Source: Schmidtea polychroa (taxonomy: Eukaryota). Taken from it: a stretch of 64,000 nucleotides of DNA. The translations under genes were made by a program, and so were the position numbers. Below the pieces are notes generated by a model that was given only the letters and a program-made list of their open reading frames with translations, did no database searches and was not told where the DNA came from. The stretch is from positions 28,956,001 to 29,020,000 of the forward strand of contig CM097885.1 of NCBI GenBank assembly GCA_044892525.1. The letters run 5' to 3'. Within the stretch, counting starts at the first letter, position 1, and the number at the start of each line of letters is the position of its first letter. Of the stretch, positions 20,828-41,828 are shown piece after piece.

Positions 20828-21014
20828 CTTAACGTGATTTCATGGTAGGCATAATGCCTTCTCACTAGTGGCAATAATTGCTATCTCACTATTAGCTTAA
20901 CGCTATTTTTTGGTAGGCATAATGCCTTCTCACTAGTAGCAATAATTGCTATCTCACTATTAGCTTAACGCTATTTTTTGGTATGCATAATGCCTTCTCA
21001 CTATCTCACTATTA
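20828..21014. repeat. 68 bp tandem repeat x ~3 with internal palindromes in the retroelement leader
   Basis: Units start at 20828, 20895 and 20963; the first two contain AGGCATAATGCCT and RGCAATAATTGCT, the third is shortened. Confidence 0.9.
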
Positions 21015-22637: not shown

Positions 22638-22655
22638 ATCCCGGCTGAGCCCCCA
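22638..22655 (-). promoter_or_regulatory. Primer binding site, tRNA-Pro-like
   Basis: TGGGGGCTCAGCCGGGAT matches the canonical tRNA-Pro PBS TGGGGGCTCGTCCGGGAT at 16 of 18 nt and lies 7 nt inside the LTR end CCAACA. Confidence 0.85.
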
Positions 22656-23152
22656 AAAATCATGTTGGCATATGTGGGGAAAGAAAATGTGCACACACAA
22701 TTTCCCTACCTATCAAACGTCAGTATTCTGCTCAGACCATTCCCTCACACATTCCATATGATTATTCATATATTCCCACGTATGAGCCCGTGGTGATGTT
22801 CCACGTTGGTGATGCTCACACGGGTCGACAAAGGTTAGCAGGTGAGCCCCTGCCTTAGGACTACTCCTAACCCCTGCTCGGTTCGGGTCCTACGGTGCCT
22901 TAGAAGGTCTTACCCTTGTTACTCATATAATTCAGTCCAACCTCGGTCCAAAGGGGACGACATTTGAGTTCAAATCATATCTCCAAAATCACTTTCCTAT
23001 TTAAATCAATCAACGCAATTCACACATACAACTAACATACTCAAAGAAACCGAACAGTTGTATTGAAACAAACAATAACGAAAAACATTTAAAGGGATAT
23101 TCACTATTAACTGAATAACAACCAAACATTGAAAATCATACGCCAGACAATG

Positions 23153-25567: not shown

Positions 25568-25765
25568 ATTGCTGCCGCCGTTCTTGCACCGTCATGAGGG
25601 ACAAATCGACCCTTTCACATTTCGATAATCAAAAATTCACATGCAATTATAATGATGATAGATAATAAATAAAAAACAAATTACTCGACGACCCTATCAT
25701 TTGGACTCCAAGTGTGATGCTCCCTCATTCCCAAATCACCAGTTCAAATCCAGCATTAATTAGTA
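25568..25765 (+). repeat. 198 bp direct duplication, left copy (right copy 41161-41358)
   Basis: ATTGCTGCCG...CATTAATTAGTA occurs on both sides of the Polinton; one substitution seen. Confidence 0.95.
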
Positions 25766-26758
25766 GTGTGGTTATATACCCAACCAAAACAGCCCTCCCA
25801 ACAAAACATGCCTCCAAATCACTTAAGCTATTAGAAAAACAACCTAAAACTTATACTTTTATAGTATTTTAACCCTATATTTTGAAAACAACCACCCTTA
25901 ATGACTCTAACTGTTTTAATCTTTAAAGCCTCAAACTCAAAAGCTTCAAACTAAAAACATAAAGAGAATAGAAAAGAAAATGGTATTATGAAAAAGTAAG
26001 AAGGCTACTTGAGGATGCCAACTAGCAAGTTGCTAATTGGCTAATTAAAAAAAATAAATGAAATCTTAATCTTGATGTCTTGAAGAATAAAAAATTTTAT
26101 GAAAATAGTAAAACTGCTCTGAGAGGACAGTGGTATTTTTTTTTTTTTTTTTTTTTTTCACTGTCATCTCAACAGTTTTTTTGATCCGGATCATTTTTTT
26201 CTTTTATTCAACCTCTTTCGTTTATCAAATCTCTTCCAATATACAAGCTGGCCAGGCTCATAATCAGAATCAATTCGATAATAGCAGCACACCTTATTAT
26301 TCGCTTCTCGCTCGAATACGATTTCATCGGCGTTTTAAGTGTGCTGCTCGAAAGTACAAATGAATTCGAAAGTGAATTCGAAAGAGGTCCGAAAACAACT
26401 GAGAAATAAATGTGCACATTAAAGAATCGATCCGGGGGTGTTCGAAAGACAGGTGGCGATAATTACCGGTTCGCCACCATCACCCGTTTCAATAATTTTT
26501 TTTTCATATTTATGTTTAAAAAATAAAATAAAATAAAATAAATAAAATAAAATAAAATAAAAATAAATAAAATAAAATAAAAATAAATAAAATAAAATAT
26601 AAATCTAAGATACCCACACTATTATTTTCAAATTTTTAATATTATTTTATGTTGAAAAAAAACTAACCACAGTTAGGATTTGAACCGCTATCCATTTGAA
26701 CCACGGTGCCGGTCTAGCCCACTGCGCCATCAAGGTTTGAATTTTTGTCATTTTTTTA
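25762..26758 (+). repeat. Polinton left TIR
   Basis: Near-identical reverse complement of about 40194-41162; contains (AAAAT)n. Confidence 0.93.
26655..26737 (-). ncRNA. tRNA-like Pol III unit 1 (in left TIR)
   Basis: A box TGGCGCAGTGG (26719-26729), B box GGTTCAAATCC (26676-26686), T8 terminator. Confidence 0.6.
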
Positions 26759-26885
26759 ATTTTTAATTTATAAAAAAAAAAATAAAATAAAATAAATAAA
26801 ATAAAATATACAAGTACTTTATAAATATAAGATACCCACACTATTTTCAATATTATTTTCAAATTTTTAATATTATTTTATGTTG

Positions 26886-26968
26886 AAAAAAAACTAACCT
26901 CAGATGTGATTTGAACCACTAGCATTTTGAACCACTGTGTCAGTCTAGCCCACTGCGCTATTAAGGTT
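26886..26968 (-). ncRNA. tRNA-like Pol III unit 2 (diverged tandem copy of unit 1)
   Basis: TAGCGCAGTGG, GGTTCAAATCA, T8; part of a ~230 bp tandem duplication. Confidence 0.5.
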
Positions 26969-27035
26969 TGGATTTTTGTCATTTTTTTAATTTTTAATTT
27001 ATAAAAAATGAATAATATAAATCTTAAAAAATAAA

Positions 27036-30000
27036 ATGAAAACAGGGTATCCAATAAAAAATTTTTTTCTAAAAATGAATTGTAATATTTGCAATAAAGT
27101 TTTTAAAAATAAAACTGGATTAATTTCTCACTTAAAATCGAAAGCTCATTTATTAAAAGAAAACAATCTTAATGATACAAATTCAAAACTTTGTCTTAAA
27201 TGTAAAGGAAGATTTCTACATTCTGGATATAATAAACATTTTGAAAATTGTATCGGGAAAAATAGAGAAATATTTACATGTCCTCATTGTAACTTTTCAA
27301 CAAAACTAAATTTCTATTATTTAGAACATATAAAAGAATGTAAAAATAAAAAACAAAATTCTGACGATGAGGAATGTCATTCAGAAGGAGAACCTGATCA
27401 TGTTGAAAGAGAAAAATATAACTGGGATAATTTTAATCATATAGATGAATTTCAATTAAAAATTAATGGGCCTGCAACTCCTGGAGAATATATAAATAAA
27501 AATAAAAAAAATATTAAAAATTCTTTCACTGAAGCTTTAAAAAATTATAAACCGACAAGGTATAATGTTATAAAATATAAAATTATAATCAAAGCAAAAT
27601 ACTGGCGAGGAGCAGAAGAAAAGACAACACCTTTAGATGTTGAAATTGGAATACCCTTTAAATATTTATTTTCAACTAAAGGATTTGATAAAACCATCAA
27701 AGAAATAATTCAAGCAGTAGAAGCAAAACAAGAAGAGGTTGAAAATGAATTAGGAGATTCAAACTTAGTATTCAACTCTTTCCAAACTTTAGTGATTGAT
27801 TATTGGAGAGGATTACCACCTAATCCTAAATCTTATATTCCTACACCCTTTAAATCTAAAAATGTTATAAACATACAGAATAATGATAACAAATGTTTCG
27901 TCTGGTCAATACTTGCACATTTACACCCTCAAGAATCAAACCCTCAAAGAGTTTCAAAATACAAACAATATGAAAATGAATTAATATTTCCCAAAGGATT
28001 CAAACATCCAATGAAACTAGAAGACATTCCAAAATTTGAAAAATTAAATAATCTTAAACTTAATATTTATGAACATGTTATAGGGAAAGAAATTATTCCA
28101 ATTTATATTTCAGATAGTGGAACCAAGGATAACGGAGCACAGGACAACGAGATATATCTTTTAATCTTGGAACAACAAAATAATCAACATTATGTTTTAA
28201 TAAAAAACTTTCAAGCTTTTACATCTCCAGAGAATCCAACTAGTGGAGGAGGAACATGTAAAAGATGTCTTCATTATTCAACAACTAAAAACTCTATGAT
28301 TAAACATACAAGATTTTGTGAAAAAGATGATCCAGCTTTAATTAAAATGCCTAATAATCCCAAGATGTATTTTAAAAACTTTTCAAATTTACTACAAACA
28401 GTTGGAGTTCTTTATGGTGACTTTGAATCTATAAACCATAAACAAGATTTGGTTTATCAATATTTAAAAATAATAGAAAAAAATAAACTCATGGATTTAT
28501 GGAACTCCTCAGGAGAGAAGATGAAACCAGAGAGGATGAAAGCCTTTCTAAGAAAAAGAAATAAACCTAATAGTGTTAAAAAAACTAAACAATTACCATC
28601 TGCTTATAAATTATTATTTAAAAGTAATTATCCTGAACTCATAGAATCTAGAGAATATTCAATTCTAGGAGGTACCCCTGAAGAAGTCTTGAATCATTTT
28701 ACTAAAAATATAAATGATCTAGAACATGAAATATTTAAAATATTAAAAACAAAGTATCCTCAAAATATTTCTAATCAACAACAACAAGAATATGAAAATA
28801 CTTCCAACTGTTGGATGTGTAAACAGAATATTCTTCCTGATGAAAAAGTTATAGATCATGATCATTTAAAAAAGGAAAATAATTATCGAGGAGCAGCTCA
28901 TAAAAATTGCAATCTTAATTGCCATACTCCTAAATTTATACCTGTTATATTTCATAATCTTTTTGGATATGACATACATCTATTTATTAAACATTTAGCA
29001 GCAAATGCTAAAAACTCTTTCAAAGTTATCGGCTTAACAAAGGAAAAATATAAATCAGTTGAATATGGGAAATTAAAATTTATAGACTCGTTAAACTTTC
29101 TTCAAATGTCTCTAGATGGAATAGCTAAAACAATGAAACCAGAAGATTTTAAAATCACTCGAGAATTCTTGGAAAAAAATAATATTCCTCTAGAAGAATA
29201 TCCTACATGTTTAGCAAAAGGAATATATCCTTATGACTATGTTGACTCGTTTGAAAGATATAATGAAACAAGTCTTCCTAACAAAGAAGATTTCTTTTCA
29301 AACTTACTACAATCAGGGATTACAGATCAAGAATATTCTCGAGCATTAAAAATGTGGGAATTATTCAAGTGTAAAACTTTAGGAGAATATACCAACATGT
29401 ATTTATCCTTAGATGTTTATATTCTAGCAGATTGCTTTGAAGAATTTACAAACTCTTTTGTTCTTAAACCTTATAATTATATAACTGCACCCTCTTTAGC
29501 TTGGGATACTATGTTATATACCATTTGGACTTCAAATATAGAAGATGCTGATAAAATTATAGATCTTTTAACTAACCTCGATATGTTTAACCAAATTAAA
29601 ACAAACATTAGAGGAGGAGTCTCTTCAGTAATGGGGAATAGAGAAATAAAAGCTAGAAATGCAATAACTACTAGCCGAAGACTATCTAAACACCCTGATG
29701 ATTCATATATGAAAATTAACAATGAGGAATTAAAAGAATTATTAGAAACAATGAAAAATCCTATATTTATACTTTATATAGATGCAACAGCTTTATATTC
29801 AGGAATTATGACTCAATATTTACCAATGAGTGATTTCACTGAAATAGAGAACCCAACAGATGACCTTATGAAAGAAATACTTTCAACATCGAAAGATTCT
29901 CCAATAGGTTACTTTATAGAATGTGACCTCGACTATCCAGATGATATAAAATCAGGAACAAGATATTTTCCTTTAGCTCCCATAAGAAGAAAGATTGATA

Positions 30001-31355
30001 TCAACGAACTTTCTGAATGGCAAATCTCACAAGATAAACCTCCAACAATGAAACTTCTTTGTGATCAAACAGATCGAAGGTTTTATCTTTGTCACTATAG
30101 ACTCCTCCAATTTTATCTCTCACGAGGAATGATATTAAAAAAAGTTCATAGTGTCATAAGATTTAAACAAGCTCCATTCATGAAAGCTTTTATCGAGGAG
30201 AACATTAGGTGTCGAAACATTGCAAAAAGAGAAGGTAACCTTTTTAAAGATAATAATTATAAACTTTTAAACAATTCAGTATTTGGGAAAACAATGGAGA
30301 ATGTTGATAAATATACTCATATTGAACTCCTAACAAATACTACCAAAGATATTAAGCGTTATAATCGCATGCTAGGAAAGCCTACATTTAAAAACGCACA
30401 AGTATTTTCTGAAAATCTTACTGCAGTAGAATTAAAAAATTATGAGAAAACATATAACAAACCAATATTTATAGGGTTTACAATTTTAGAACTTTCAAAA
30501 TTACAAATGTATGAAACATATTATAACATCTTACAACCTATATACGGAGCAAATATATCAATGCATGCAATGGATACAGATTCAATGTTTTTAACAATAA
30601 GAACTCATGATTTACAAAAAGATATGAAAGAAAATCCTATACTTTCAAATTTAATAAATTCATCTGGAGAACTATTTTCGTTTAAAGATGAAAAACCTTT
30701 TACTCCTATAGAAAATGGAATATTTATTCGTGCTAAACAATATTCATACGAAACATTTAGAAACCCTGAATTTATAACTAGATCATTTATATTTAAAACT
30801 CCAGAAACAGAAGAAACCATTACACATAGATATCCTATATTTCCTAAAGAAGAAAAACCTGTAAAGGATAACAGATGTAAAGGAATACAGAGAGTGGTTG
30901 CAAAGAATCTTTCTCATCAAGATTATATAGATACATTGAATCTAAATCATAAAGATAAAATTGATGAAATACATCAACTTAAAAGTGAAAACCATGATAT
31001 TCACTTGATAGAATCTCAAAAAGTATCATTATCAAATTATGATGATAAGAGATTCATACTAAGTGATTTAAAGACAACTCTACCTATTGGAAATAATTTA
31101 ATCCCTATAATAAAAAATCTAGAAAAGTTGAATAAGTTATATGATACAAAGATTACTGATCTTGATATTTATAATGTTGAAATTATTTATCCCGAGAGAG
31201 AAATCGAGAAACCTTTATATTCTCAAGTTTTTAATCCTATATGTTTAGAACTTAAATATTTTAATACTGATCCTGAATATATAAAAGGTCTAAGTGATAA
31301 AGAATTTAAAGATCATAAATTAATGATTCATAGGTTGGCTTTCAACCATAACTGA
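27036..31355 (+). CDS. polB: Protein-primed family B DNA polymerase with N-terminal zinc fingers and endonuclease VII-like insert
   Basis: CNIC..HLKSKAH; YGDFES; CWMC..DHDH..YRGAAHKNCN; HNLFGYD; KGIYPYDY; YIDATALY; KLLNNSVFGKT; MDTDS. Uninterrupted 1439 aa. Confidence 0.95.
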   Translation: MKTGYPIKNFFLKMNCNICNKVFKNKTGLISHLKSKAHLLKENNLNDTNSKLCLKCKGRFLHSGYNKHFENCIGKNREIFTCPHCNFSTKLNFYYLEHIKECKNKKQNSDDEECHSEGEPDHVEREKYNWDNFNHIDEFQLKINGPATPGEYINKNKKNIKNSFTEALKNYKPTRYNVIKYKIIIKAKYWRGAEEKTTPLDVEIGIPFKYLFSTKGFDKTIKEIIQAVEAKQEEVENELGDSNLVFNSFQTLVIDYWRGLPPNPKSYIPTPFKSKNVINIQNNDNKCFVWSILAHLHPQESNPQRVSKYKQYENELIFPKGFKHPMKLEDIPKFEKLNNLKLNIYEHVIGKEIIPIYISDSGTKDNGAQDNEIYLLILEQQNNQHYVLIKNFQAFTSPENPTSGGGTCKRCLHYSTTKNSMIKHTRFCEKDDPALIKMPNNPKMYFKNFSNLLQTVGVLYGDFESINHKQDLVYQYLKIIEKNKLMDLWNSSGEKMKPERMKAFLRKRNKPNSVKKTKQLPSAYKLLFKSNYPELIESREYSILGGTPEEVLNHFTKNINDLEHEIFKILKTKYPQNISNQQQQEYENTSNCWMCKQNILPDEKVIDHDHLKKENNYRGAAHKNCNLNCHTPKFIPVIFHNLFGYDIHLFIKHLAANAKNSFKVIGLTKEKYKSVEYGKLKFIDSLNFLQMSLDGIAKTMKPEDFKITREFLEKNNIPLEEYPTCLAKGIYPYDYVDSFERYNETSLPNKEDFFSNLLQSGITDQEYSRALKMWELFKCKTLGEYTNMYLSLDVYILADCFEEFTNSFVLKPYNYITAPSLAWDTMLYTIWTSNIEDADKIIDLLTNLDMFNQIKTNIRGGVSSVMGNREIKARNAITTSRRLSKHPDDSYMKINNEELKELLETMKNPIFILYIDATALYSGIMTQYLPMSDFTEIENPTDDLMKEILSTSKDSPIGYFIECDLDYPDDIKSGTRYFPLAPIRRKIDINELSEWQISQDKPPTMKLLCDQTDRRFYLCHYRLLQFYLSRGMILKKVHSVIRFKQAPFMKAFIEENIRCRNIAKREGNLFKDNNYKLLNNSVFGKTMENVDKYTHIELLTNTTKDIKRYNRMLGKPTFKNAQVFSENLTAVELKNYEKTYNKPIFIGFTILELSKLQMYETYYNILQPIYGANISMHAMDTDSMFLTIRTHDLQKDMKENPILSNLINSSGELFSFKDEKPFTPIENGIFIRAKQYSYETFRNPEFITRSFIFKTPETEETITHRYPIFPKEEKPVKDNRCKGIQRVVAKNLSHQDYIDTLNLNHKDKIDEIHQLKSENHDIHLIESQKVSLSNYDDKRFILSDLKTTLPIGNNLIPIIKNLEKLNKLYDTKITDLDIYNVEIIYPEREIEKPLYSQVFNPICLELKYFNTDPEYIKGLSDKEFKDHKLMIHRLAFNHN

Positions 31356-31441
31356 AACCAACGATATTTAATAATAAAATGTCGACAATTAATTTAAGCA
31401 ACTATAGCCACTTGATCTACTTTTTTAAAAATACACCCATT

Positions 31442-32038
31442 TTATAAGTAAGAATTCTTTAACCATTTTTCTCGAGATGTTTTTTTATTACTTATAACAT
31501 TAGCCACCATGCCCTCCCTTTTTAATCTTATAACCTCATTCTTTATATCTTGTATTATTTGATTTGATTTCATTATTTCTTCTTCTGTCAGGATTCCATC
31601 TTCCAAAGCTTTTAATTGAAATAAAAATAATTTAGAGATTCCTAATTCTATTGATAAACAAACTTCTCTATATAAACTTTTCTTTTTAGAAGTATAAGAT
31701 AATGAAACTATTTCAGTTAAGAAACCATCAGCCACAGAAATACTTCCAAGTATTACAGGTGCAAGAGTAACAACTGGTAAAGTTATGGGTAAAATAATTG
31801 TTAATATTGCAGATGCAAATCCTAAAGAATAACCTATAACTTTTAAAACTGTATTCCCTTTATTCCATCTATTTTTAATTTTTTTATAATGCTTTAATAA
31901 ATCTTGTAAATGTAAGGTTTCTGATTTAAATTCTTTTACTCTCATAATTTCAAGTTCTGTGGGAGCCGAGGCCTTGGAAGAATAATATCCTGATGATCTC
32001 AATTCTGGGTAAATTTTTTCTTCTCTTACTTCTTCCAT
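31442..32038 (-). CDS. Polinton conserved membrane-associated protein (PW/'gasderminX'-like)
   Basis: HYKK..W followed by a double hydrophobic segment and a KALEDGILTEEE motif. Confidence 0.55.
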   Translation of the reverse strand: MEEVREEKIYPELRSSGYYSSKASAPTELEIMRVKEFKSETLHLQDLLKHYKKIKNRWNKGNTVLKVIGYSLGFASAILTIILPITLPVVTLAPVILGSISVADGFLTEIVSLSYTSKKKSLYREVCLSIELGISKLFLFQLKALEDGILTEEEIMKSNQIIQDIKNEVIRLKREGMVANVISNKKTSREKWLKNSYL

Positions 32039-32046
32039 TTTAATAA

Positions 32047-33057
32047 TTAAAAAAATAAGACTTTATTCTTCTGAGAACCATCTGGCACCAATACTCGGAT
32101 ATCAAAAGAAACTCTTGTTGAGAGGATATCTTTATACAATTCTCTCAATGCTTTACGAACTTCATCAACATCAACCTTTTTTTCATAAAATATTAAATCT
32201 ATATATTGTACAAGTGAACTAGAAAAATGAATATTCTTACTTTTAACTTTATGTAGTCCATGTGAATGAGTATTAACATACCAATCTCCGTGTGGTAAAT
32301 CATAACTAGTCATTATAACATCACCCTTTTCAAGCTTACTATTATAATCACATTTCACAAACCATTTCATTCTTTCATTATCATCATCAAACAAAAAGAA
32401 ATAAGGATCAATAATTTTTACAACCATAAAAACACCCCATTCTTTACTGTTTGTTGTTATTAAACTTGGTTCTATAAAATGTTTATATGTATGGGGTAAT
32501 AATGTTTTATTCTGTTCTAATTCAGCAGCTCTTTTTCTAATACTATGTGTGGTGTTAATGTGTGTTCCATGAGACTCTAAATTTGAAATTCTTTTATTAA
32601 ATGATGTAATCATCTCATTTATTTTATTATATATTGTATTAAATTTAGTATTCATAATTTGTTTATCTTTAGAATTTAATATAGCAGTATTTAACTTTAC
32701 AACTTGTTCAGTTAACAGACTTTGAAACTTGTCAAATTTATCATTAAATCGTTGTTCGATATTATTAAGCTTTGATTCCATTGAATCAATTTTTGTTGTT
32801 AATGAACTTTCAATTCTTGTTGTTGTTAAATCAGTATATTTTTTAACACCATCTACATATTTCTTATTAACTGCATCAGCTTCATCAGTTGGAAAAGATA
32901 ATTCTTTTATCTTGTGTCCATTTAAAATTAAATCACCCTTCATTGAATCACCTCTTTCATTAATATATTTATTTTCTGTTAAAGTTAATATTTCTTCTGT
33001 ATTAAACCATGTTTTTATTGTTCCACCACCTCTATTACATGGAATATAAGAACTCAT
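32047..33057 (-). CDS. Putative fibre/spike-like protein
   Basis: GDSMKGDLILNGHKIKEL..P...DAVNKKYVD fibre-neck-type motif, then a long coiled coil and a globular C-terminus; adjacent to the penton gene. Confidence 0.5.
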   Translation of the reverse strand: MSSYIPCNRGGGTIKTWFNTEEILTLTENKYINERGDSMKGDLILNGHKIKELSFPTDEADAVNKKYVDGVKKYTDLTTTRIESSLTTKIDSMESKLNNIEQRFNDKFDKFQSLLTEQVVKLNTAILNSKDKQIMNTKFNTIYNKINEMITSFNKRISNLESHGTHINTTHSIRKRAAELEQNKTLLPHTYKHFIEPSLITTNSKEWGVFMVVKIIDPYFFLFDDDNERMKWFVKCDYNSKLEKGDVIMTSYDLPHGDWYVNTHSHGLHKVKSKNIHFSSSLVQYIDLIFYEKKVDVDEVRKALRELYKDILSTRVSFDIRVLVPDGSQKNKVLFF

Positions 33058-33081
33058 TTATTAATAATTTAAAATGAATCT

Positions 33082-33846
33082 TCAAACCTGTTTCAAATGT
33101 AAATACATTGAAATCTCTTCTCCATTAAAATCAATCAATTCTCCTTCTTGATTAAGAATTTTAAAATTAATATCCATTATATATTTTCTACATAAAGGTA
33201 AATAATTTGGAGGATTCATTCTTTCAACTATTTTATATCCCATAGGAACTGTGTTTGAGGGAAAGGAATATAAAACATTTGTTTGTTTACCATTATTATA
33301 AGAACCTGTTATACAATCGCAATGAATATTTATTGTGTTTGTATTTATTATTTTTATAATATGTTCTGATGTTATTATTTTATCTTCTTTTATTGTTATA
33401 TCCATAGGTTTAAATCCTAAAACTGTGTGAAAGAAACAATTATCTAAAAAACTAATTTTTATATTCTTCAAAGTCATTACACATTTTGAAGTTGGTATAT
33501 CCATTTTAATTTTAATACCTTCATTTGTTTTTTTAGAAAGTATATCATTTAAATCTTTTATCTCATATGCCCCAGGTTCTATTGTTATAATTTCTGGTTT
33601 ATGCCCATCACGAGTTTGAATAGTAAATTTATTATTATCTTTAGTTATATTAAAAATAGTATTATAAGCACAAAACCATAATAGCCCCAATTCATAATTT
33701 AAATTTTGATCTAATTTAATTGAATCTTGAAAGTTTATAGTAAACTCTGATTCTTTTGAATTTATAGATAAAGTTCTTGAATATTTATCTGACATTATGT
33801 TTACCATTTTTTTTAAATTATCTTCCGGAGGGTTGTGAAGCTCCAT
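33082..33846 (-). CDS. Minor capsid protein (penton, PX)
   Basis: IEPGAYEIKDLN, INIHCDCITGSYNNG, GYKIVER..P.YLPL, NQEGELIDFNGE motifs. Confidence 0.85.
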   Translation of the reverse strand: MELHNPPEDNLKKMVNIMSDKYSRTLSINSKESEFTINFQDSIKLDQNLNYELGLLWFCAYNTIFNITKDNNKFTIQTRDGHKPEIITIEPGAYEIKDLNDILSKKTNEGIKIKMDIPTSKCVMTLKNIKISFLDNCFFHTVLGFKPMDITIKEDKIITSEHIIKIINTNTINIHCDCITGSYNNGKQTNVLYSFPSNTVPMGYKIVERMNPPNYLPLCRKYIMDINFKILNQEGELIDFNGEEISMYLHLKQV

Positions 33847-33894
33847 TTCTTTAGGAGTAAATTCATATAGTAAAAATCCTTATAGTAAAAATCC

Positions 33895-34359
33895 TTATAG
33901 TAGAGATTCTAGATCATTATAAATTTCTTGAATTATAGATTCAAAATCCTGCGTATGCCCCTTTCCCTCTCCCTTATTCAATCTATACAAAACATATAAA
34001 CTTAAAATACCACATATTTTAGTATTCAAAGGTTGAACTTGTAAAGAGTTAAAAGTATAACCATTTGGGGAATCAATCGGAGAACCCCTCAAGAGATAAT
34101 CTTCAACTTCTTTAGTAGGTTTAATCCCAAAAGAATCAAAGTAGATAGATTTCTTATATATACAAACCCAATGAGATCCTTTTTCATTTGAATTTTGATA
34201 ATTGATTATTATATTCAGGGGACTCTCCAGACTTGATAATTCATCATTCATTAATATTTTTATTTTTAAATTTAAATAATTTGCATAATCTTTTAAATCA
34301 AAATTTGTTTTTGCATTTATTCCAAATGTTTTTAAAAAATCTAATATTGAAGGAGTCAT
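33895..34359 (-). CDS. Adenain-like cysteine protease
   Basis: GSHWV, YFDSFG, QVQ...CG catalytic His/Asp/Gln/Cys pattern. Confidence 0.92.
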   Translation of the reverse strand: MTPSILDFLKTFGINAKTNFDLKDYANYLNLKIKILMNDELSSLESPLNIIINYQNSNEKGSHWVCIYKKSIYFDSFGIKPTKEVEDYLLRGSPIDSPNGYTFNSLQVQPLNTKICGILSLYVLYRLNKGEGKGHTQDFESIIQEIYNDLESLL

Positions 34360-34381
34360 TTTGTATTTTAAAACTTCGTAT

Positions 34382-35275
34382 TTATAACTTCGTATACTTA
34401 TTAAATTTATCTTTTGAAATTATTCCTTGTTTTAACAAATCTTTAGAAATCTTTAAAATATCAGAATCTAAATTATTATGTCCTGGTTTCCTTGCAGCTA
34501 ATAGTTTTCTTAATTCAATAAAAAGATTGATGGGATTTGGTTTACCACCTTCACTAATTAATCCCTCTCCCTCTGTAACAACATAACCCTTTTCATTTTT
34601 ATTTAAATAATTCTTTAAATCTTGAATATATTTTGCTTTAGAACTAGCTCTTATTAATCTTATTAAATTTAAATATTTTTTAATTTCTTCAACATCATCT
34701 GAAGAATATCCACAAAGTAATCTATAAAAATCATCTGTAAATTCAAAGTCTAAATATTCATTATTATAAACATTTTGTGAATGAATACGTGATTTATTTT
34801 CTGAATTTGAATATAAAGTAAAGTTTTGTTTATTAATTGTTATTATTTGATATCCTTCAGTATTAGTATTAAATGTGGGTCTAATTGAAGGAGGTAAATC
34901 ATCTCTAATTTTAGGATCAACTTTAAGAGGTTTTGTTTTTAAAAACATTTCTTCTTCTTCCACATTAGAAATTCTTCTGCGTTTTCTTTGATTTCTTTCA
35001 GAATGACTTTCAGGTTGGTTTTCACTGGATTCTTTTTCTTTATCCTGCCACTCTAGTTCTTTTATTTTTTGTTTTTTATCTTCTAACTCTTTAAATTTTG
35101 CTTGCTCATTGAAATCTTCCAACTCTTTTATAGCTTTAATTGTTGGCCCCTGTTGTTGTGTTATTACCTCATTTAATATTATAGATTCAGCATGTTGAGT
35201 TGTATCTTTTTTATTATATTTATCTTGTTCTGATTGTAATTTTTTTAAAAGTGCTAATCTTTCTTCATATACCAT
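34382..35275 (-). CDS. Polinton conserved protein (PZ-like)
   Basis: C-terminal LRKLLAARKPGHNN...ILKISKDLLKQGII motif; N-terminal coiled coil. Confidence 0.55.
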   Translation of the reverse strand: MVYEERLALLKKLQSEQDKYNKKDTTQHAESIILNEVITQQQGPTIKAIKELEDFNEQAKFKELEDKKQKIKELEWQDKEKESSENQPESHSERNQRKRRRISNVEEEEMFLKTKPLKVDPKIRDDLPPSIRPTFNTNTEGYQIITINKQNFTLYSNSENKSRIHSQNVYNNEYLDFEFTDDFYRLLCGYSSDDVEEIKKYLNLIRLIRASSKAKYIQDLKNYLNKNEKGYVVTEGEGLISEGGKPNPINLFIELRKLLAARKPGHNNLDSDILKISKDLLKQGIISKDKFNKYTKL

Positions 35276-35297
35276 TTTAATGGTATCAAAAATGGTA

Positions 35298-35876
35298 TCA
35301 TAGTTCGAAGGGCTTCAAGTATAATCCTTTACCATTTTTAGTTTTACAAAGGCATCCATTCTTTAAAGATTTACATATTTTTTTTAAATCTTCTTTATCT
35401 TTTGAAGATAAAGATTCAGATGTAGAAATTTGATTTTTTAAAAAATCATTTAAACCTCTACCTTTATAAGGATCAAGATAGAGACCTTTGCCCTGAGACT
35501 TTTGCCAACTCCCCTCGTATGGATTAAGATAGAGACCCTTTCCAACGGACACTCCCCCTTTAGCTTGCCCTACCTTCTTCATTGAATCGATTTCAGTTTG
35601 TAGTTTTTCTTTTTCTAGGTCTGTCTTTTGAGATTCTTTAGCTTTTTGAACTGTAGTTGCAATTCCTCCAGCTATTCCAGCAGCACCTGATAAACCAGCA
35701 ATGATTGCAGGTATTAAAGCAGCTAATGGAAGAATGCCGCCTTCTTTAGCTTCGTGGAGCTTCGCTCTAACTTGTTCTTTTACATGTTTTCCAATAAAAT
35801 AATTTTTACCATCAATTACTACTGATTTATTTTTATTTGAATTTATTATTTCTTGCAAAGATTCTTCAGTTGTCAT
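35298..35876 (-). CDS. Putative virion core/membrane-active precursor protein
   Basis: EGG-ILPLAALIPAIIAGLSGAAGIAGG amphipathic segment and three GKGLYLxP repeats. Confidence 0.6.
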   Translation of the reverse strand: MTTEESLQEIINSNKNKSVVIDGKNYFIGKHVKEQVRAKLHEAKEGGILPLAALIPAIIAGLSGAAGIAGGIATTVQKAKESQKTDLEKEKLQTEIDSMKKVGQAKGGVSVGKGLYLNPYEGSWQKSQGKGLYLDPYKGRGLNDFLKNQISTSESLSSKDKEDLKKICKSLKNGCLCKTKNGKGLYLKPFEL

Positions 35877-35891
35877 TTTATAATAAACAAA

Positions 35892-36683
35892 ATGGATATT
35901 TGGAAACCAATTTTAAATAGACATAAGAGTAAATTTAATAATAAAGTATTTCCTGATAATTTTAGATTATTAATTGTTGATTCTTCTGGATGTGGAAAGA
36001 ATGTACTTGTTTTGAGAATGTTACTTGAAGATGATTTTTTAGATTATAATAATTTAATCTTTTATTCTACAACCATAAATCAACCAGAATTACAACTTTT
36101 GAAATGTGGATTTGAAAATAAATTAACTAAAAAAGCAATAATTGATATTTTTAAAAATCAACATAGGTGTCCTGAAGAAGTTTTTCAACCTTGTGATATG
36201 GTTGATTGGTATAAGGAAAAGATTTTAGAATCAGATATTAGTAATAAAAATGATTATATTTGTGAAGAAGGGCAGGAGGCAATTCAAGTTTTATTCTCTA
36301 ATAAACCTGAAGATGTTTTACATTGTGATTTACTTCCTAAAGATAAAAAGAATCTAGTTATATTTGATGATGTTGTCAACATGAAAAATCAAGAGATTCA
36401 AAAGAGTTACTTTACACGAGGTCGACATAATAATTGTAATGTTATTTATATATCTCAAACATATTATGCTTTAGATAAAAATTCAATAAGAAATAATTCC
36501 AATTGTTTTATATTTTTTAAATTAGATCGCCGTGATAAGAATATGATTTATAATGATTTATTTTCAAATGTTGAACCTGATAAGAATATGTTTGATATGT
36601 TTGTTGATAATCATTGGAAAGAAAAATATAATTATATTTATTTGGATAGAGAAGAAGCTGAAATATGGAAAAGTTTGTTTTAG
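35892..36683 (+). CDS. A32/FtsK-like packaging ATPase with altered Walker A
   Basis: LLIVDSSGCGKN (expected GxSGxGKT), Walker B LVIFDD, RGRHNN, ISQ. First ATG at 35892. Confidence 0.9.
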   Translation: MDIWKPILNRHKSKFNNKVFPDNFRLLIVDSSGCGKNVLVLRMLLEDDFLDYNNLIFYSTTINQPELQLLKCGFENKLTKKAIIDIFKNQHRCPEEVFQPCDMVDWYKEKILESDISNKNDYICEEGQEAIQVLFSNKPEDVLHCDLLPKDKKNLVIFDDVVNMKNQEIQKSYFTRGRHNNCNVIYISQTYYALDKNSIRNNSNCFIFFKLDRRDKNMIYNDLFSNVEPDKNMFDMFVDNHWKEKYNYIYLDREEAEIWKSLF

Positions 36684-36694
36684 GGCTTGTCGAC

Positions 36695-38104
36695 TTAAAA
36701 ATCTGTTTTCTGTAGTTCATTATTATAAAATCTACCTAATATTTTTTCATTATTTAAATCAAAGATGGTATATGTTATTGGAGTTGTATAATGTATTTTA
36801 TTTATAATAAAAATTTCATTTGTCCATTTTGCTGTGAATCCTTTTTCAAATTTATTTTTATATTTAAATATTCTTACTCGGTCACCAATTTTAAACTTTG
36901 GTTTTTCAATAACATCATTTTCAATATTTACCACTTTAATGGTTTCAGGCTTCATGGAAGCATTTAAAGGTGTTAATTTTATAGAACTATGTACATCATT
37001 ATTATATTCATTTACAATCTTTTGTAACAATTCATTGTTCCATTTTTGTTTTCCAATAGCAGTAAAATATTTCCACATTTTATTTTTTAATGTTCTATTT
37101 AATCTTTCAACTACGACTGCTTTTCCTTCGTTTTCTGTTGAATATAATTTAATATCATTTTCATTTAAAAACTTTGTAAAAACTTTGTTATAAAATTCTG
37201 TTCCTTTATCACACCATAAATATTTTGGGATTCTTTGATTTTCTTCAAATATATTTTCAAATGCTTCTGTAATAGAATATCCTGTTTTATTTTCTAAACA
37301 TCTTGCAAAAGCAAATCTTGTATATAAATCTATTACAGTTAAAATTATTTTATATTTTTCAGGGTCTGATGATTTTGGCATAAAGACTAAATCTGCAGAC
37401 CATGTTTGATCTTTTTCATGTACTTGAACTTTTAAATATTTTTTATTTTTTCTAAATTCATGGTGTAATTCCTTTGCATATTTTATTTCTGATTCTGTTG
37501 GGGTTTGTAAACTAGTCTTGGCTGTACTCTCGAGGGATCTTTCAATCTCTGCTTGTTCGATAATCTTTTTATAAGCAACATCTTTTGCTTTCCTAGGAAG
37601 TCTTGCACCCATGGTGATCGGACTGTGTCCTAAGCCTATGAAAATCTTACATTTCATTGCTAATTTAACTAAAGCTCTTTGAATCTTTTCTTGGGTTGAT
37701 GGATTTTGGATACTATTTAAATCATGTATTAAATTCACATCTGCAACATGTCTATCTCTAAGATTTGTTGAATTGTATGCAATGTCATGTTTTAAAGCTG
37801 CTTGATCAATTCTATTTATTGGTTCTTCTCCTTGTTTGGGATTATTATTTTCATCTAATCTAATATCTAGACGTGTTCCTGGTCCAGTATAGTTGTGTTT
37901 AAATAAATGTCTTTCACCTGGATATTTTTCTGTAGTAAAAGGTTTTAATATTGAAGATGTTGTTTTTGAAGATTGCAAATCGCCTCCAGCTCGTGGAATT
38001 AGATCACCTCCTGTATGTTTTTTAGTTTTTAAATGACTTGCTTTATGATGTCTTGTAACTTGACAATTACAACTTTCACATCTCCAATATTTATTTAGAG
38101 ACAT
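36695..38104 (-). CDS. int: Retroviral-like integrase fused to an N-terminal zinc finger and a parvovirus-type phospholipase A2 domain
   Basis: CESC..HLKTKKH; NYTGPGT..INRIDQAALKHDIAY..RHVAD; WSADL, CDKGTEF, VERLNRTLK. Confidence 0.92.
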   Translation of the reverse strand: MSLNKYWRCESCNCQVTRHHKASHLKTKKHTGGDLIPRAGGDLQSSKTTSSILKPFTTEKYPGERHLFKHNYTGPGTRLDIRLDENNNPKQGEEPINRIDQAALKHDIAYNSTNLRDRHVADVNLIHDLNSIQNPSTQEKIQRALVKLAMKCKIFIGLGHSPITMGARLPRKAKDVAYKKIIEQAEIERSLESTAKTSLQTPTESEIKYAKELHHEFRKNKKYLKVQVHEKDQTWSADLVFMPKSSDPEKYKIILTVIDLYTRFAFARCLENKTGYSITEAFENIFEENQRIPKYLWCDKGTEFYNKVFTKFLNENDIKLYSTENEGKAVVVERLNRTLKNKMWKYFTAIGKQKWNNELLQKIVNEYNNDVHSSIKLTPLNASMKPETIKVVNIENDVIEKPKFKIGDRVRIFKYKNKFEKGFTAKWTNEIFIINKIHYTTPITYTIFDLNNEKILGRFYNNELQKTDF

Positions 38105-38133
38105 TTTAAAATGTTAAAATATCAGGGATTATA

Positions 38134-39426
38134 TCAAGAATCTCCCCTAACATTTTCGATTATTGAAATCTTTCCACCATATAATTTCATTTCTATTTTC
38201 TTTTCTTCTAATATTAATGTATATACTTTAGCTTTAAAATTAGAATCCTTTGTTACATGAAGTGTAACATCAACATTATTTATGGCTAGGCGATCATCTT
38301 GGTCTGAAACATTTATACAAAATATAGAATATAAATTTTTGAAATCTTCTAAACTTAATTGCGGTTCAACTTTGAAATCATAACATGTTTCAATATAATT
38401 TAGATATGGGAATATGTTTTCATTATTTTCAATATTAAATTCCATTCTATTTATTGGATAATAAGAACTATTTAATTGAATTTGGATTGTTTTTAAATTA
38501 TCAACTCCAATCTTTTGAATAAACAAGTTGTTATTTTTTTGGAACGATGAATCTACTTCTTTGAATCCAATCAAGATATATCTTGGTCGGTATGCTAAAT
38601 TTGCTACCTTTATAGAATATGTTGAACCCTCTGTCATACTAAATTCACTACAGATTCTATTTAAATAATTTACATTTATAGACTTGTTGGAATTTAATCT
38701 TTCAAGGAGTTTAATCTCAGAATGTGGGTTTAATGTCCATTCAGGTATATGTAATTCAAGTGTTGATAATTTTAATTTAGCTTTTGTATCTACAGCTCCA
38801 TAGAACAATCTTTTATCACCTTCTACTCTATTACAGATGAATTCTATAAAAACATTATGAAGTATACGATTATAGTTTTGAAGGAATCCAAACAAGTGTT
38901 TTAATTCAAAATAACCTTCAAATTTTTTAGATTTATAAAGTTCAGCTCTTTTATGGTAACCATGGTTTACATCTTAACCATCTTTATCTAAATCCCCTTT
39001 ATTAACATCAGGAATCCAACCTGTTAATTCACCATATTCGTTTTTATAATCACAACCAGTCAAAATAAAATTTAACATTGTAGAATATACTCCCGGATGC
39101 AAAACAGTTTCAATTTCTGATGATCCTAGTTTTAATCTCATGTTGGAGAATAAATTTGGAAAGAAATTATTTTCTAGGGTTATATCTTTGTTTGCTTCAA
39201 TTTCTAATTCGATTTTATAATATAATTTGGCATTACAAATATCTATAGGGTTTGATGTTTGAAGAGATTGAAAAACTATATCACCCCTACGATTTAAGTT
39301 TGCAATCGATCCTGACGTAGGGGATATTTTAAGTACATCATTTTTCTTGATTTCATGAGTAAATTCTTTATTATAATCAAGATTTAATTTATTTTTTTCT
39401 TGAATTTTAAGATTTATATTATTCAT
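38134..39426 (-). pseudogene. Major capsid protein (PY) with a single in-frame TAA at 38974-38976
   Basis: The two ORFs share a frame: DKDG*DVNHGYHKRAELY..LKHLFGF gives about 430 aa. Motifs LENNFFPNLFS, PRYILIGF, IQLNSSYYP. Confidence 0.85.
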
Positions 39427-39482
39427 TTTTATATATTAAAATTTACACACACACAATAGGATTAATTAAATATATTTTGTAA

Positions 39483-39564
39483 GCCATTATAGCGGAGTGG
39501 GAATAGGCTTCAATTTTATCACCGGGAGTACCGGGTTCAATTTTCGATTTTGGTCAATTTTTTT
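39483..39564 (+). ncRNA. tRNA-like Pol III unit 3 (degenerate B box)
   Basis: TAGCGGAGTGG (39490-39500), GGTTCAATTTT (39534-39544), T7. Confidence 0.4.
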
Positions 39565-39724
39565 CGATATTTTTTTTCAACGGAATCTGATTCAGCGTAC
39601 TGATTTTAGTATATATTTAAATTTTCAGATGGATCTGAGTGGTAGTTGTCGAGAAAATGAATAATTAATTATCAATTTCATCAATAAATAGTCACACATT
39701 AACAACTTATTTTATATTGAGTAT

Positions 39725-39806
39725 AGCTCTAATAGCTTAGTGGTAATAGCACTCGACTGCATTGCCAATACCAATGGGTTCAAATCCCATTTCGGTCATT
39801 TTTTTT
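39725..39806 (+). ncRNA. tRNA-like Pol III unit 4
   Basis: A box TAGCTTAGTGG (39733-39743), D-arm-like GCT..AGC, perfect T arm ATGGG-TTCAAAT-CCCAT, T8 terminator. The anticodon stem does not pair. Confidence 0.65.
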
Positions 39807-39967
39807 CAAATTTTTTTTAACGAAATATTGATCAGCATACTCGATTTAGTACTTGTACAACTTTTTAATGAGATTGGTCAACGGCAACTCTTGGAAATTT
39901 AAGATCAAAAACGTTTTAACTTAAGCTACCAAAAATTAATATATCCAATAAAAAAATATTTATAAAA

Positions 39968-40237
39968 ATGGATGAGTTAAAAGAAAGAATGAGAAATGAA
40001 TTGAATGAAGTTAAACATAAGAGAATGAAAAGAAGAGAAGAAGAACCATTAGAATACATCAAAGAGTTGATGGTAGATAATGAAAAGTATCGACATTTTT
40101 ATATGAAGGCTGTAGATGTTGCTGATATAAGATTGAAGAAAATGAAACAATTACAGGAAAGAGTTAAAGAACTTGAATCGATTATTTATAGTCTAAAAAA
40201 TAACAAAAATCCAAACCTAGATAGCGCAGTGGGCTAG
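39968..40237 (+). CDS. Small coiled-coil protein, unknown function
   Basis: Intact 89 aa ATG ORF with an AAAAATG context like the other Polinton genes; the stop lies within the TIR. Confidence 0.55.
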   Translation: MDELKERMRNELNEVKHKRMKRREEEPLEYIKELMVDNEKYRHFYMKAVDVADIRLKKMKQLQERVKELESIIYSLKNNKNPNLDSAVG

Positions 40238-41162
40238 ACCGGCACCGTGGTTCAAATGGATAGCGGTTCAAATCCTAACTGTGGTTAGTTTTTTTTCAAC
40301 ATAAAATAATATTAAAAATTTGAAAATGATAGTGTGGGTATCTTAAATTTATATTTTATTTTATTTATTTTTATTTTATTTTATTTTATTTTATTTATTT
40401 TATTTTATTTTATTTTTTAAACATAAATATGAAAAAAAAATTATTGAAACGGGTGATGGTGGCGAACCGGTAATTATCGCCACCTGTCTTTCGAACACCC
40501 CCGGATCGATTCTTTAATGTGCACATTTATTTCTCAGTTGTTTTCGGACCTCTTTCGAATTCACTTTCGAATTCATTTGTACTTTCGAGCAGCACACTTA
40601 AAACGCCGATGAAATCGTATTCGAGCGAGAAGCGAATAATAAGGTGTGCTGCTATTATCGAATTGATTCTGATTATGAGCCTGGCCAGCTTGTATATTGG
40701 AAGAGATTTGATAAACGAAAGAGGTTGAATAAAAGAAAAAAATGATCCGGATCAAAAAAACTGTTGAGATGACAGTGAAAAAAAAAAAAAAAAAAAAAAA
40801 TACCACTGTCCTCTCAGAGCAGTTTTACTATTTTCATAAAATTTTTTATTCTTCAAGACATCAAGATTAAGATTTCATTTATTTTTTTTAATTAGCCAAT
40901 TAGCAACTTGCTAGTTGGCATCCTCAAGTAGCCTTCTTACTTTTTCATAATACCATTTTCTTTTCTATTCTCTTTATGTTTTTAGTTTGAAGCTTTTGAG
41001 TTTGAGGCTTTAAAGATTAAAACAGTTAGAGTCATTAAGGGTGGTTGTTTTCAAAATATAGGGTTAAAATACTATAAAAGTATAAGTTTTAGGTTGTTTT
41101 TCTAATAGCTTAAGTGATTTGGAGGCATGTTTTGTTGGGAGGGCTGTTTTGGTTGGGTATAT
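40194..41162 (-). repeat. Polinton right TIR, missing terminal 12 nt
   Basis: Ends ...GGTTGGGTATAT; the expected AACCACACTACT is absent. Confidence 0.92.
40214..40296 (+). ncRNA. tRNA-like Pol III unit 5 (right TIR copy of unit 1)
   Basis: TAGCGCAGTGG (40222-40232), GGTTCAAATCC (40265-40275), T8. Confidence 0.6.
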
Positions 41163-41828
41163 TGCTGCCGCCGTTCTTGCACCGTCATGAGGGACAAATC
41201 GACCCTTTCACATTTCGATAATCAAAAATTCACATGCAATTATAATGATGATAGATAATAATTAAAAAACAAATTACTCGACGACCCTATCATTTGGACT
41301 CCAAGTGTGATGCTCCCTCATTCCCAAATCACCAGTTCAAATCCAGCATTAATTAGTACTTTCTCAAATTTACGTCAACTCTCCTCCATTCCAACAATTT
41401 CGCAACATCTCCGGGACGCATGTCACAGCAATTCTTCGCGTCTACGCTCTCTCATTGGCATCACACTTGAAGTTCCCAGAGGATACAGTCGTCGACACCA
41501 TGAAGAAAAAGCCATTATGTTCTAAATAAAGCTTTATTAACGAAATTATTCTTGTCTATTCATAAAAATCTATTAACAAATAATCATAAATATATATTAA
41601 ATTCAATCCTATCAATCATCAATAACTTAACATACCTTGAGTTCGAATTACTAGATCAAATCGGTTGATGCTAAAATGTTCTCCTGGATAAATTTAATGA
41701 TGGTTCACTGTAAGTCCTTTTCTAAAATCGGTTTTGAATTAGTCTTCTGTAATAGCTGTAAGTAAGTCTTGAAATCTACAATCTGTAGAGATTTTGTTAA
41801 AGTGGTACTCTACTAATTTTTCGCGTTT

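Follow-up and report, generated by a model that had tools for sequence, protein, structure and literature searches.

Polintons are regarded as a link between transposons and adenovirus-like viruses, and to our knowledge the toolkit described for them so far consists of protein genes. The Polinton in the window analysed here (64,000 nucleotides) raises the question of a further layer: Does a virus-like transposon that is very abundant in its host genome carry RNA polymerase III (Pol III) units, and do these act as RNA genes, as protein-binding sites, or as neither? An initial annotation of this DNA had described five short tRNA-like units and read them mainly as analogues of adenovirus VA RNAs, with a role as chromatin insulators as the second option.

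The element is a Polinton/Maverick, as annotated, an assignment borne out by Pfam matches and terminal inverted repeats (Table 1): pPolB, a retroviral-type integrase, a packaging ATPase and a double jelly-roll capsid are all present. The terminal inverted repeats begin with AG(T) repeats. In this copy the capsid gene is broken by a premature stop near 38975, and the right end stops 13 nt short, with 198 nt of the left flank duplicated behind it; a 6-bp target-site duplication is absent from this copy, with its shortened and duplicated right side. The 89-aa ORF matched no Pfam family.

Table 1. Features of the Polinton copy (window coordinates).
Feature	Position	Strand	Remarks
Polinton/Maverick, adintovirus-type copy	25761..41162		left end starts AGTAGT
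Left terminal inverted repeat	25774..26756		exact over 809 nt; 97.9% over 983 nt vs 40195-41162
Protein-primed DNA polymerase B (pPolB), 1439 aa	27036..31355	+	Pfam PF03175
Packaging ATPase, 263 aa	35892..36683	+	Pfam PF04665
Integrase fused to PLA2-like domain, 469 aa	36695..38104	-	Pfam PF00665, PF08398
Double jelly-roll major capsid gene	38134..39426	-	PF21738
89-aa ORF	39968..40237	+	stops within U5 A box; deleted in some copies
U1, U5-type short tRNA-like unit	26655..26737	-	A box 26729, B box 26686; two B motifs, T8
U2, U5-type unit, tandem paralogue of U1	26886..26968	-	A box 26960, B box 26917
U3, short unit identical to rDNA spacer copy	39483..39564	+	A box 39490, B box 39534, weak
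U4, short unit	39725..39806	+	A box 39733, B box 39777
U5, short unit at inner edge of right terminal repeat	40214..40296	+	A box 40222, B box 40265, T8 40289
Long unit, left copy	26110..26483	-	A box 26476-26466; B box start 26433; hairpin with A-tract; T4 26113; predicted ends
Long unit, right copy	40453..40826	+	A box 40460, B box 40503, T4 at 40823, T6 at 40842; ends predicted
Block common to Polinton and host rDNA intergenic spacer	39438..39932	+	495 nt, ~97% identical

A scan for an A box, a B box and a T-run yields exactly five matches in 64 kb, at the annotated places and on the annotated strands, and every unit faces outward. The A-to-B box distance is 43-44 nt in all five, and runs of T7-8 lie 22-24 nt beyond the start of the B box. 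The type-2 layout ascribed to each unit is thereby confirmed, although the B box of U3 is imperfect: its final C is missing, and two T4 runs follow it. Markov simulations of the 15.4-kb element give a chance expectation of 0.003-0.01 units per element (1-3 of 300 runs with one), so the five short units exceed chance and their signals are genuine. A relaxed scan, allowing one A-box mismatch and a GGATCGA-type B box, gives seven matches, adding 40460(+) and 26476(-). The five units are not independent, because U1 and U5 are mirror copies across the terminal repeats (92% identity) and U2 is a tandem duplicate of U1 (231 nt, 85% identity). They are of three kinds: U1/U2/U5, located at the inner edges of the two terminal repeats and bearing a further B-like motif 16 nt inward of the first (at 40249 in U5), and U3 and U4, in the rDNA-spacer block. 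Two units stand back-to-back with the start of a gene: U2 with pPolB, whose start codon is ~70 nt away, and U3 with the capsid gene, whose start codon is 64 nt from the unit's A box.

As annotated, none of the units folds as a complete tRNA. ARAGORN finds no tRNA, and the acceptor and anticodon stems of the cloverleaf do not form, which rules out a functional tRNA gene. With 32.4 bits, U4 alone attains the tRNA threshold of Rfam; its T-arm is intact and its other arms, acceptor and anticodon stems included, are broken. Sequence comparison suggests that U4 probably derives from tRNA-Cys(GCA), with 52 for Cys vs 50 for Lys among four tRNA types compared, a comparison that assigned no parent to U3, U5 or the head of the long unit; a whole-genome tRNA search gave only Lys, Arg and Arg-derived arrays, and the comparison was therefore limited to these four. 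Dispersed tRNA-derived SINEs, a check proposed with the initial annotation, are excluded as well: in samples consisting of the first matches along one chromosome, 30/30 U5-type copies and 30/30 long-unit copies (see below) lie in Polinton ends, and stand-alone copies were not met. U3 copies are in Polintons in 29/30 cases and in the rDNA spacer in 1/30.

In the U5 type, the boxes and the body differ sharply. Columns variant in at least three copies number 2/31 in the boxes and 22/45 in the body (p = 1e-4; 57 rows from 90 loci chosen without use of these boxes). Over 68 distinct rows, variable columns number 3/31 and 24/45, a difference that holds separately in GC columns (p = 0.0016) and AT columns (p = 0.037), and both B motifs are unchanged in 27/27 aligned rows. 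These 27 rows share no structure: RNAalifold returns 7 pairs at -4.5 kcal/mol with zero compensatory changes, and a common fold is rejected. Folding z-scores are -0.02 for U1, -1.59 for U2, +0.10 for U3 and -0.32 for U5. With boxes fixed, body variable and no fold kept, protein-binding sites fit better than a VA-like RNA, and U1/U2/U5 are thus better described as putative TFIIIC/Pol III binding sites than as VA-like RNA genes; between the two annotated options, the cis site or barrier gains for the short units and the VA-RNA reading loses. The annotated caveat that boxes might be no better conserved than their flanks holds in part, since the U5-type boxes (3/31) and the AT-rich flanks (8/61 variable columns) differ only in GC columns (1/15 vs 5/12). 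What stands out in the U5 type is its variable body, and gene conversion among old paralogues could also yield such a pattern.

The opposite pattern, boxes together with a fold, is found in a unit of ~375 nt in each terminal repeat, the left copy being an exact mirror of the right. Its A-to-B distance equals that of the short units (0/2000 shuffles, for a promoter pattern chosen after the sequence had been seen); its A box has one mismatch, and an internal T4 at 40541 could stop Pol III at ~90 nt. Both boxes are intact in 29/30 copies, and 26/30 ends chosen by the long unit retain an intact short unit upstream. The predicted fold contains long imperfect duplexes, including one of 24 pairs, and a hairpin with an A-tract loop; the head does not fold as a tRNA. 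The folding z-score is -8.25 on the outward strand and -4.69 on the inward strand. Among 42 rows, our own pick from 108 distinct copies, seven pairs vary, and of their 15 common pair types all are paired when the outward strand is read and 9 when the inward strand is; one pair, the only one doubly changed, switches between A-U and G-C (21 and 18 of the 42 rows). G-U pairs make up 13/81. Variable columns are rarer in the long unit (20/300) than in the distal repeat (37/229). Avoidance of T-runs was rejected as evidence, T5 runs being absent from 292/1000 shuffles. Thus a conserved double-stranded fold is predicted for the long unit and not for the short units, and the long unit, as a predicted RNA, is the likelier VA-RNA analogue: the best VA-like candidate is none of the five annotated units and lies just outside them.

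U3 and U4, contrary to the annotated reading of all five units, are not specific to Polintons and occur in the rDNA spacer of the host as well. The block that carries them has a 6-nt microhomology at its junction, is missing from many sister Polintons and, where present, occupies two different positions, with every unit facing outward in both. The host has two rDNA types. In one (18S, 5.8S and 28S located by Rfam on G000 C1:1-10000), the spacer bears a U3/U4-like array 2.9-3.9 kb upstream of 18S and pointing away from it, with 1-3 tandem copies of U4; the second type has no such array in 8/8 stretches, and neither type contains a U5-type or long unit. The spacer has an extra unit, U6, with 705 matches, 18 of them on the four chromosomes; 15/15 scattered matches checked are spacer fragments, and two scattered spacer pieces lie within Polinton polymerase genes (L294, L307).

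Did the Polinton take the block from the spacer, or give it? The Polinton pieces are nested within spacer sequence, and in a satellite of 81% identity U4 already adjoins flanking sequence peculiar to the spacer (136/147 identical). Between the spacer and this derived satellite, mismatches reach 18/74 in the unit and 8-11% in the flanks, with the boxes largely retained. A tree rooted on the satellite (its row 'SAT_L120' is a Polinton copy, to be discounted) places the spacer copies as one clade within an unresolved star of Polinton copies, a topology compatible with donation to the spacer as well as with capture followed by homogenisation. Nesting, the satellite, U6 and the two pieces in polymerase genes, not the tree, thus favour the spacer as the likely donor, and U3/U4 were likely taken by the Polinton from it. 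Shared variants in U3/U4 (boxes 0/44, rest 13/410, p = 0.63) are too few for a conservation test. Private mutations are not significantly raised (p = 0.20 and 0.87) and were rejected as a sign of transcription: U3/U4 bear no mutational mark of heavy transcription.

The units are not a general Polinton feature. Among 30 loci picked by capsid, 9 have short ends free of any unit; such sisters have spread nonetheless, which makes the units optional. Relatives of the ATPase in public assemblies gave 60 matches (44-92%), and its alignment includes four viral contigs at 26-33% identity, in which the same scan found no Pol III-type unit; metagenomes gave no ATPase matches. The double-B pattern turned up in 19 metagenome stretches, all of them devoid of an A box and of Polinton proteins, and in 0 viral ones. 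The long unit is covered by contigs from four runs whose RNA nature is a guess, at depths that cannot be ranked and with gaps that coincide with skipped repeats; contigs from three such runs cover U5-type units and extend across the predicted start or terminator. In the literature we found nothing on Pol III units or VA RNA in Polintons, and the words VA RNA, polymerase III and noncoding are absent from the Polinton papers searched; Repbase reports, subscription papers and supplements may describe these ends.

The account we prefer, and would place near an even call but short of it, is that one Polinton clade carries a cluster of Pol III cassettes in which short units act in cis, U3/U4 are captured and the 375-nt unit makes a trans-acting RNA. 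Host TFIIIC would bind the A and B boxes; the short units would be cis landing sites for TFIIIC and Pol III, their RNA disposable. Facing outward and set back-to-back with the start codons of the polymerase and capsid genes, they could maintain open ends and form a barrier to silencing that enters from the flanks. U3 and U4 would add two more sites, possibly still as passengers. The long unit is predicted to make a structured RNA that might, like adenovirus VA RNAs, engage proteins of the double-stranded-RNA and RNAi pathways as their decoy or substrate, and the cluster would be an optional module moving between capsid lineages through exchange of ends. That the element owns a Pol III non-coding locus in both ends, with a 375-nt double-stranded decoy against host RNA silencing and TFIIIC barrier cassettes, two of them from the spacer array, is a more doubtful proposition that we consider possible.

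How well do other readings fare? The short units could be neutral passengers, tRNA-derived spacer debris spread by hitch-hiking and end exchange, with only the long unit, or nothing, functional. Spacer fragments at scattered sites, even within Polinton genes, a block absent from many copies and placed in two positions, unit-free sisters, the lack of a sign of selection in U3/U4 and a capsid tree with 6 changes of end type, near the mean of 7.8 for shuffled labels, all speak for this. We nevertheless think it unlikely, because the U5-type boxes, duplicated B motif included, persist while half of the body columns vary, and because every unit faces outward in both block positions. Somewhat less probable again is the annotated main reading, that all short units are genes for trans-acting small RNAs, VA-RNA or vtRNA/TMER-like decoys. 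Each short unit has a complete A box, a B box and a strong terminator; 26/30 ends chosen by the long unit keep an intact short unit upstream of it; the T-stem of U4 is perfect with letters unlike those of the host tRNA-Cys, and its folding beats 197/200 shuffles; and the tRNA-like part of TMERs is described as a functional element (PMC8223928). Against these stand the missing common fold and the unremarkable z-scores of U1, U2, U3 and U5, the T7-8 directly after each unit, which leaves no room for downstream hairpins, the lack of a VA match in Rfam, and the presence of U3/U4 in the host spacer.

We regard as improbable the reverse direction of transfer, in which the U3/U4 array arose in Polinton ends and passed from there into the spacer of a single rDNA type. 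The spacer clade nested among Polinton copies and the array-free second rDNA type agree with it, as does the match of U3 to some U5 variants at 18/20 first letters from the A box, which would imply a long family history in Polintons. The spacer, however, has no other Polinton sequence, U6 was found in no Polinton end, the U4-to-spacer junction already exists in the satellite, and Polinton copies of the block differ from each other much less than those of the adjacent U5. As Polintons presumably replicate via single-stranded panhandles, the long folded stretch could instead form in single-stranded DNA at the ends while the element is copied, or belong to a Pol II transcript that crosses the terminal repeat; the folding of its inward strand, the imperfect A box and the internal T4 would suit this. 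Yet the G-U pairs and the shared variants that pair on one strand only fit RNA, the A-to-B distance is that of the short units, and short-ended sisters replicate without the stretch, making this the most remote of the readings.

If the more doubtful proposition of a decoy and barrier module is true, it would help explain how this clade came to number well above a thousand copies. With Pol III cassettes and a conserved structured RNA, Polintons would gain a non-coding layer and a possible route to escape silencing. The spacer link also reveals something about the host: of its two coexisting rDNA types, a single one has a tRNA-derived promoter array, a difference that may be relevant to the unequal expression of such types.

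How do these units compare with known systems? tRNA genes and extra-TFIIIC sites act as chromatin barriers, in which the A and B boxes matter more than the RNA, and in the yeast rDNA spacer a 5S gene faces away beside a strong transcription unit. The outward orientation here is similar; the spacer array, unlike the yeast gene, consists of degenerate tRNA-like units, and by this analogy a barrier role is putative. Among mobile elements, Pokey, a piggyBac DNA transposon of Daphnia, holds repeats on the 200-bp scale from the rDNA intergenic spacer (PMC10946416). Only the U3/U4 block resembles it, as an internal segment nearly identical to a tandem-rDNA spacer; the cited part of that account describes no Pol III signals in the Pokey repeats, whereas the piece captured by the Polinton holds tRNA-derived units, in a carrier that, unlike Pokey, is scattered over chromosomes. 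The TRIMs Cassandra, Helenus and Ajax carry 5S- or tRNA-derived promoters in their LTRs, with boxes conserved and RNA fold lost (PMC10886601), and likewise a promoter from a small-RNA gene is retained in the Polinton terminal repeat. Their promoter makes a reverse-transcription template, whereas the Polinton copies itself as DNA and its units point outward; a non-autonomous LTR retroelement of the TRIMp3 kind is ruled out, this being a DNA element with inverted repeats and its own polymerase.

Some MELD viruses, mid-size linear dsDNA viruses with other replicases, have predicted tRNA genes (PMC8502044), whereas the Polinton units are incomplete tRNAs. VA RNAs block PKR and serve as Dicer substrates (PMC4378190). 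Like the Polinton units, adenovirus VA RNA I/II have an internal Pol III promoter of type 2 and reside in virus-like linear dsDNA, and their structured RNA has a predicted counterpart in the long unit; they differ in length (~160 nt vs ~80 and 375 nt), and the Polinton units, unlike them, lie in terminal repeats, the short ones keeping no fold. Between 25500 and 41500, even at an E-value limit of 10, Rfam finds no VA-family RNA. Near one end of the murine gammaherpesvirus 68 genome, the TMERs (tRNA-miRNA-encoded RNAs) form a cluster with type-2 promoters of tRNA origin (PMC8223928, PMC4378190). A TMER layout, in which a tRNA-like head is co-transcribed with pre-miRNA hairpins, is excluded by the T7-8 in the short units, which stop there with no downstream hairpin and have not kept the cloverleaf. 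The tRNA-like head with hairpins of a TMER resembles the long unit (same sources), and although the head is refolded, a TMER layout is possible for the long unit on its predicted structure.

We found all five of the Pol III-type units that the initial annotation had placed in the Polinton, and they are the sole matches of the short-unit pattern in the 64-kb window (chance expectation in simulations, 0.003-0.01 per element). None is a tRNA, as that annotation had held in saying that none folds as a complete one. Because U5 is the mirror image of U1, and U2 a second copy of U1, the five represent only three kinds: U5 type (U1, U2, U5), U3 and U4. U3, U4 and some U5 variants are mutually related (z of 6.5-13 against shuffles). 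U4 equals host tRNA-Cys(GCA) at 25 of 28 aligned letters in the stretch between A box and anticodon, both included, which points to an origin from this tRNA, an assignment that is provisional because the comparison took in four host tRNA types.

Coordinates of the features discussed (window positions unless a host-genome contig, G000 C1, or a locus, L-number, is given)
Feature	Position	Strand	Remark
Polinton	25761-41162		terminal inverted repeats; genes identified by Pfam
U1	26655-26737	-	
U2	26886-26968	-	
U3	39483-39564	+	
U4	39725-39806	+	
U5	40214-40296	+	
Block with U3 and U4	39438-39932		
Long unit, two copies	26110-26483; 40453-40826	-; +	predicted, ~375 nt, one per terminal repeat
Flank duplication	25568-25765; 41161-41358		198 nt, direct
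Capsid-start repeat	39410-39443; 27002-27030		
Gypsy-type element	5792-24000	-	
rDNA spacer array	G000 C1:12243-13300 (L224:2243-3300) and many unplaced contigs		tRNA-derived Pol III-type units, facing away from rRNA genes
Satellite, 1245 bp	G000 C1:145-168 kb (L175-L188, L288)		diverged U4 copy and spacer flank
U6-bearing fragments	L292-L308		ends at C1-repeat positions 12337-12362
Fold-back-like repeats	L117:5655-6928; L119:2071-3505		
Retroelement frames in rDNA	L228, L229, L224-L225		R2-like or other non-LTR, judged by eye
U5-type copies with three B-like motifs	L140, L141		16-nt motif can expand
tRNA-Tyr-like gene	L114:2864-2936		host, with intron

The Polinton encodes a protein-primed polymerase, a packaging ATPase, an integrase that bears a PLA2-like domain, and a capsid protein of the double jelly-roll type, whose gene is interrupted by a stop codon in the present copy; PLA2-like genes are reported in one adintovirus class (PMC8502044). 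Its inverted repeats agree at 100% over 809 nt and at 97.9% over 983 nt. The flank duplication replaces a short target-site duplication and the right end is 13 nt short, which we read as aberrant integration or an assembly effect. The first capsid codons and the AT-rich motif upstream of them recur just before the polymerase start, which suggests a common promoter or a formerly longer inverted repeat. Elsewhere in the window, the large gypsy-type retroelement carries gag and protease/RT. Its RT-RNase H-integrase frame has ankyrin repeats fused to it, two frames between gag and pol encode a Monjiviricetes-type fusion glycoprotein, and there is also a RING-finger ORF.

Are the units dispersed host SINEs, as the initial annotation had allowed? 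In the 781-Mb genome (four large contigs), the U5-type motif has 2025 exact matches (control, 0) and the U3 motif 2000. Among the first 30 matches along one chromosome, all 30 U5-type copies lie in Polinton-end sequence and 29 of 30 U3 copies lie inside Polintons; we therefore reject the SINE reading. In two of the sampled U5-type copies, the Polinton end fragment is borne by a different, fold-back-like repeat. Such fragments (U4, small ORF, U5, long unit) sit centrally in long repeats of this kind, one of which (L119) has tandem 192-aa frames resembling, by eye, HMG-box proteins.

The thirtieth U3 copy lies within a 13.5-kb tandem repeat carrying the 18S, 5.8S and 28S genes. Here a spacer array, 2.9-3.9 kb upstream of 18S and oriented away from it, is made up of an additional unit, U6, together with U3 and one to three U4, at a period of ~240 nt. 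The U3/U4 block of the window is ~97% identical to this array, with U3 unchanged, and the rest of the Polinton has no match to the rDNA repeat beyond one 34-nt AT-rich stretch. The view of the units as Polinton-specific is supported for the sampled U5-type copies but not for U3 and U4. The genome has 855 matches for the 18S start and 705 for U6. Two rDNA types, as documented in dugesiid planarians (PMC6884822, PMC10991399), are present, 8% apart (18S 92% identical): the array-bearing type (13.5-kb repeat, ITS1 ~520 nt) and another (11.6 kb, ITS1 ~790 nt), in which the array was not found in any of eight stretches. This restriction to one type could bear on the types' unequal expression. Some rDNA repeats also hold retroelement frames.

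The block was probably captured by the Polinton from the spacer, judging from sequence comparison. Different Polinton subfamilies carry two nested pieces of the spacer, at two positions; the block is missing from many Polinton copies, and its junction shows 6-nt microhomology. All 15 scattered U6 copies checked proved to be fragments of the spacer, and two of these lie within polymerase genes of Polintons. Block diversity among Polintons is much below that of U5. Finally, a satellite whose U4 region is 81% identical runs on into spacer-only flank, so this junction predates the Polinton-spacer split. Against capture, a satellite-rooted tree of 42 rows places the 13 spacer rows as a clade among Polinton rows that form an unresolved star, and the array is missing from the second rDNA type; even so, we consider donation of the array by Polintons to the spacer improbable. 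In the 1245-bp satellite, changes cluster in the body of the unit, most of them being to A. The ends of the scattered U6-bearing fragments often fall in a span of ~25 nt immediately behind U6, perhaps a break-prone site.

The unit cluster is an optional module of Polinton ends. Of 30 loci chosen by capsid profile, 18 have long ends with units, nine have short ends without, two are truncated and one is masked; at the opposite end of eight short-ended elements (reached in seven), no unit was found. The capsid tree implies six switches of end type (mean with shuffled labels, 7.8), and ends have therefore been exchanged between lineages. In a single case, a tRNA-Tyr-like gene lies ~460 nt outside a short-ended Polinton end.

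Each terminal repeat also holds a long candidate unit, which the initial annotation had overlooked. Approximately 160 nt beyond U5, an A box (40460) is followed 43 nt on by a B box of GGATCGA type (40503), and a mirror copy lies at 26476. A looser A/B pattern, chosen after the fact, matches only U1-U5 and the two long-unit copies in the window and arises in none of 2000 shuffles. The fold of 40446-40830 is stronger on the outward strand (z = -8.25) than on the inward (z = -4.69). From 108 distinct copies we selected 42 rows, in which 99.2% of cells in 81 pairs can pair; one pair, the single doubly changed one, alternates A-U/G-C, and at seven variable pairs the common pair types are valid in 15/15 cases outward versus 9/15 inward. 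Variable columns are fewer in the body than in the distal repeat. The motif has 2831 genome matches; all 30 sampled lie in Polinton ends, with boxes intact in 29 and a short unit upstream in 26. It was found neither in either rDNA type nor in the short-ended sister Polintons, and an Rfam search gave no match. An internal T4, a T4/T6 end and the lone doubly changed pair weaken the case for this unit; a DNA-level or Pol II structure is highly improbable.

For the short units, we compared U5-type copies chosen independently of their boxes: variants common to at least three rows occupy 2/31 box, 22/45 body and 6/62 flank columns, and a second count (68 distinct rows) gave 3/31, 24/45 and 8/61 variable columns. 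The boxes therefore vary far less than the body, whereas their advantage over the AT-rich flanks is not clear; on the comparison with flanks, which the initial annotation had named as a refuting test, the result partly counts against it. The pattern recurs between spacer and satellite; for U3/U4 within Polintons the comparison has no power. The pattern fits candidate TFIIIC sites with a disposable RNA. Transcription-associated mutation (PMC6130373) could explain the fast-changing body, but private changes in U3/U4 are not significantly raised. That the units are neutral passengers is doubtful; that their RNAs act in trans is unlikely, and among 27 U5-type rows no common fold or compensatory pair was found.

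Our tentative overall reading, a little short of an even chance, combines predicted TFIIIC sites, captured U3/U4 and a long structured RNA. From the observed signals, contexts and conservation we infer the remaining steps: TFIIIC would bind the A/B boxes of short units, which stand back-to-back with the polymerase (~70 nt) and capsid (64 nt) start codons; these units may hold the ends open or stop incoming silencing; and the long unit would yield a structured RNA sequestering dsRNA-binding or RNAi proteins, the role proposed by analogy with VA RNAs, which tie up such proteins (PMC4378190).

The Pol III-type units are real, and their general kind is known. In the literature searched, including Polinton-related papers (Repbase and closed papers lay outside the search), we found no such units for Polintons. 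Pol III cassettes are described in viruses (VA RNA, PMC4378190; TMERs, PMC8223928) and in transposons (Cassandra, Helenus; PMC10886601), and Pokey is an earlier case of rDNA spacer capture by a transposon (PMC10946416). For Helenus and Ajax the same argument has been made, that promoter sites are kept while the RNA is disposable (PMC10886601).
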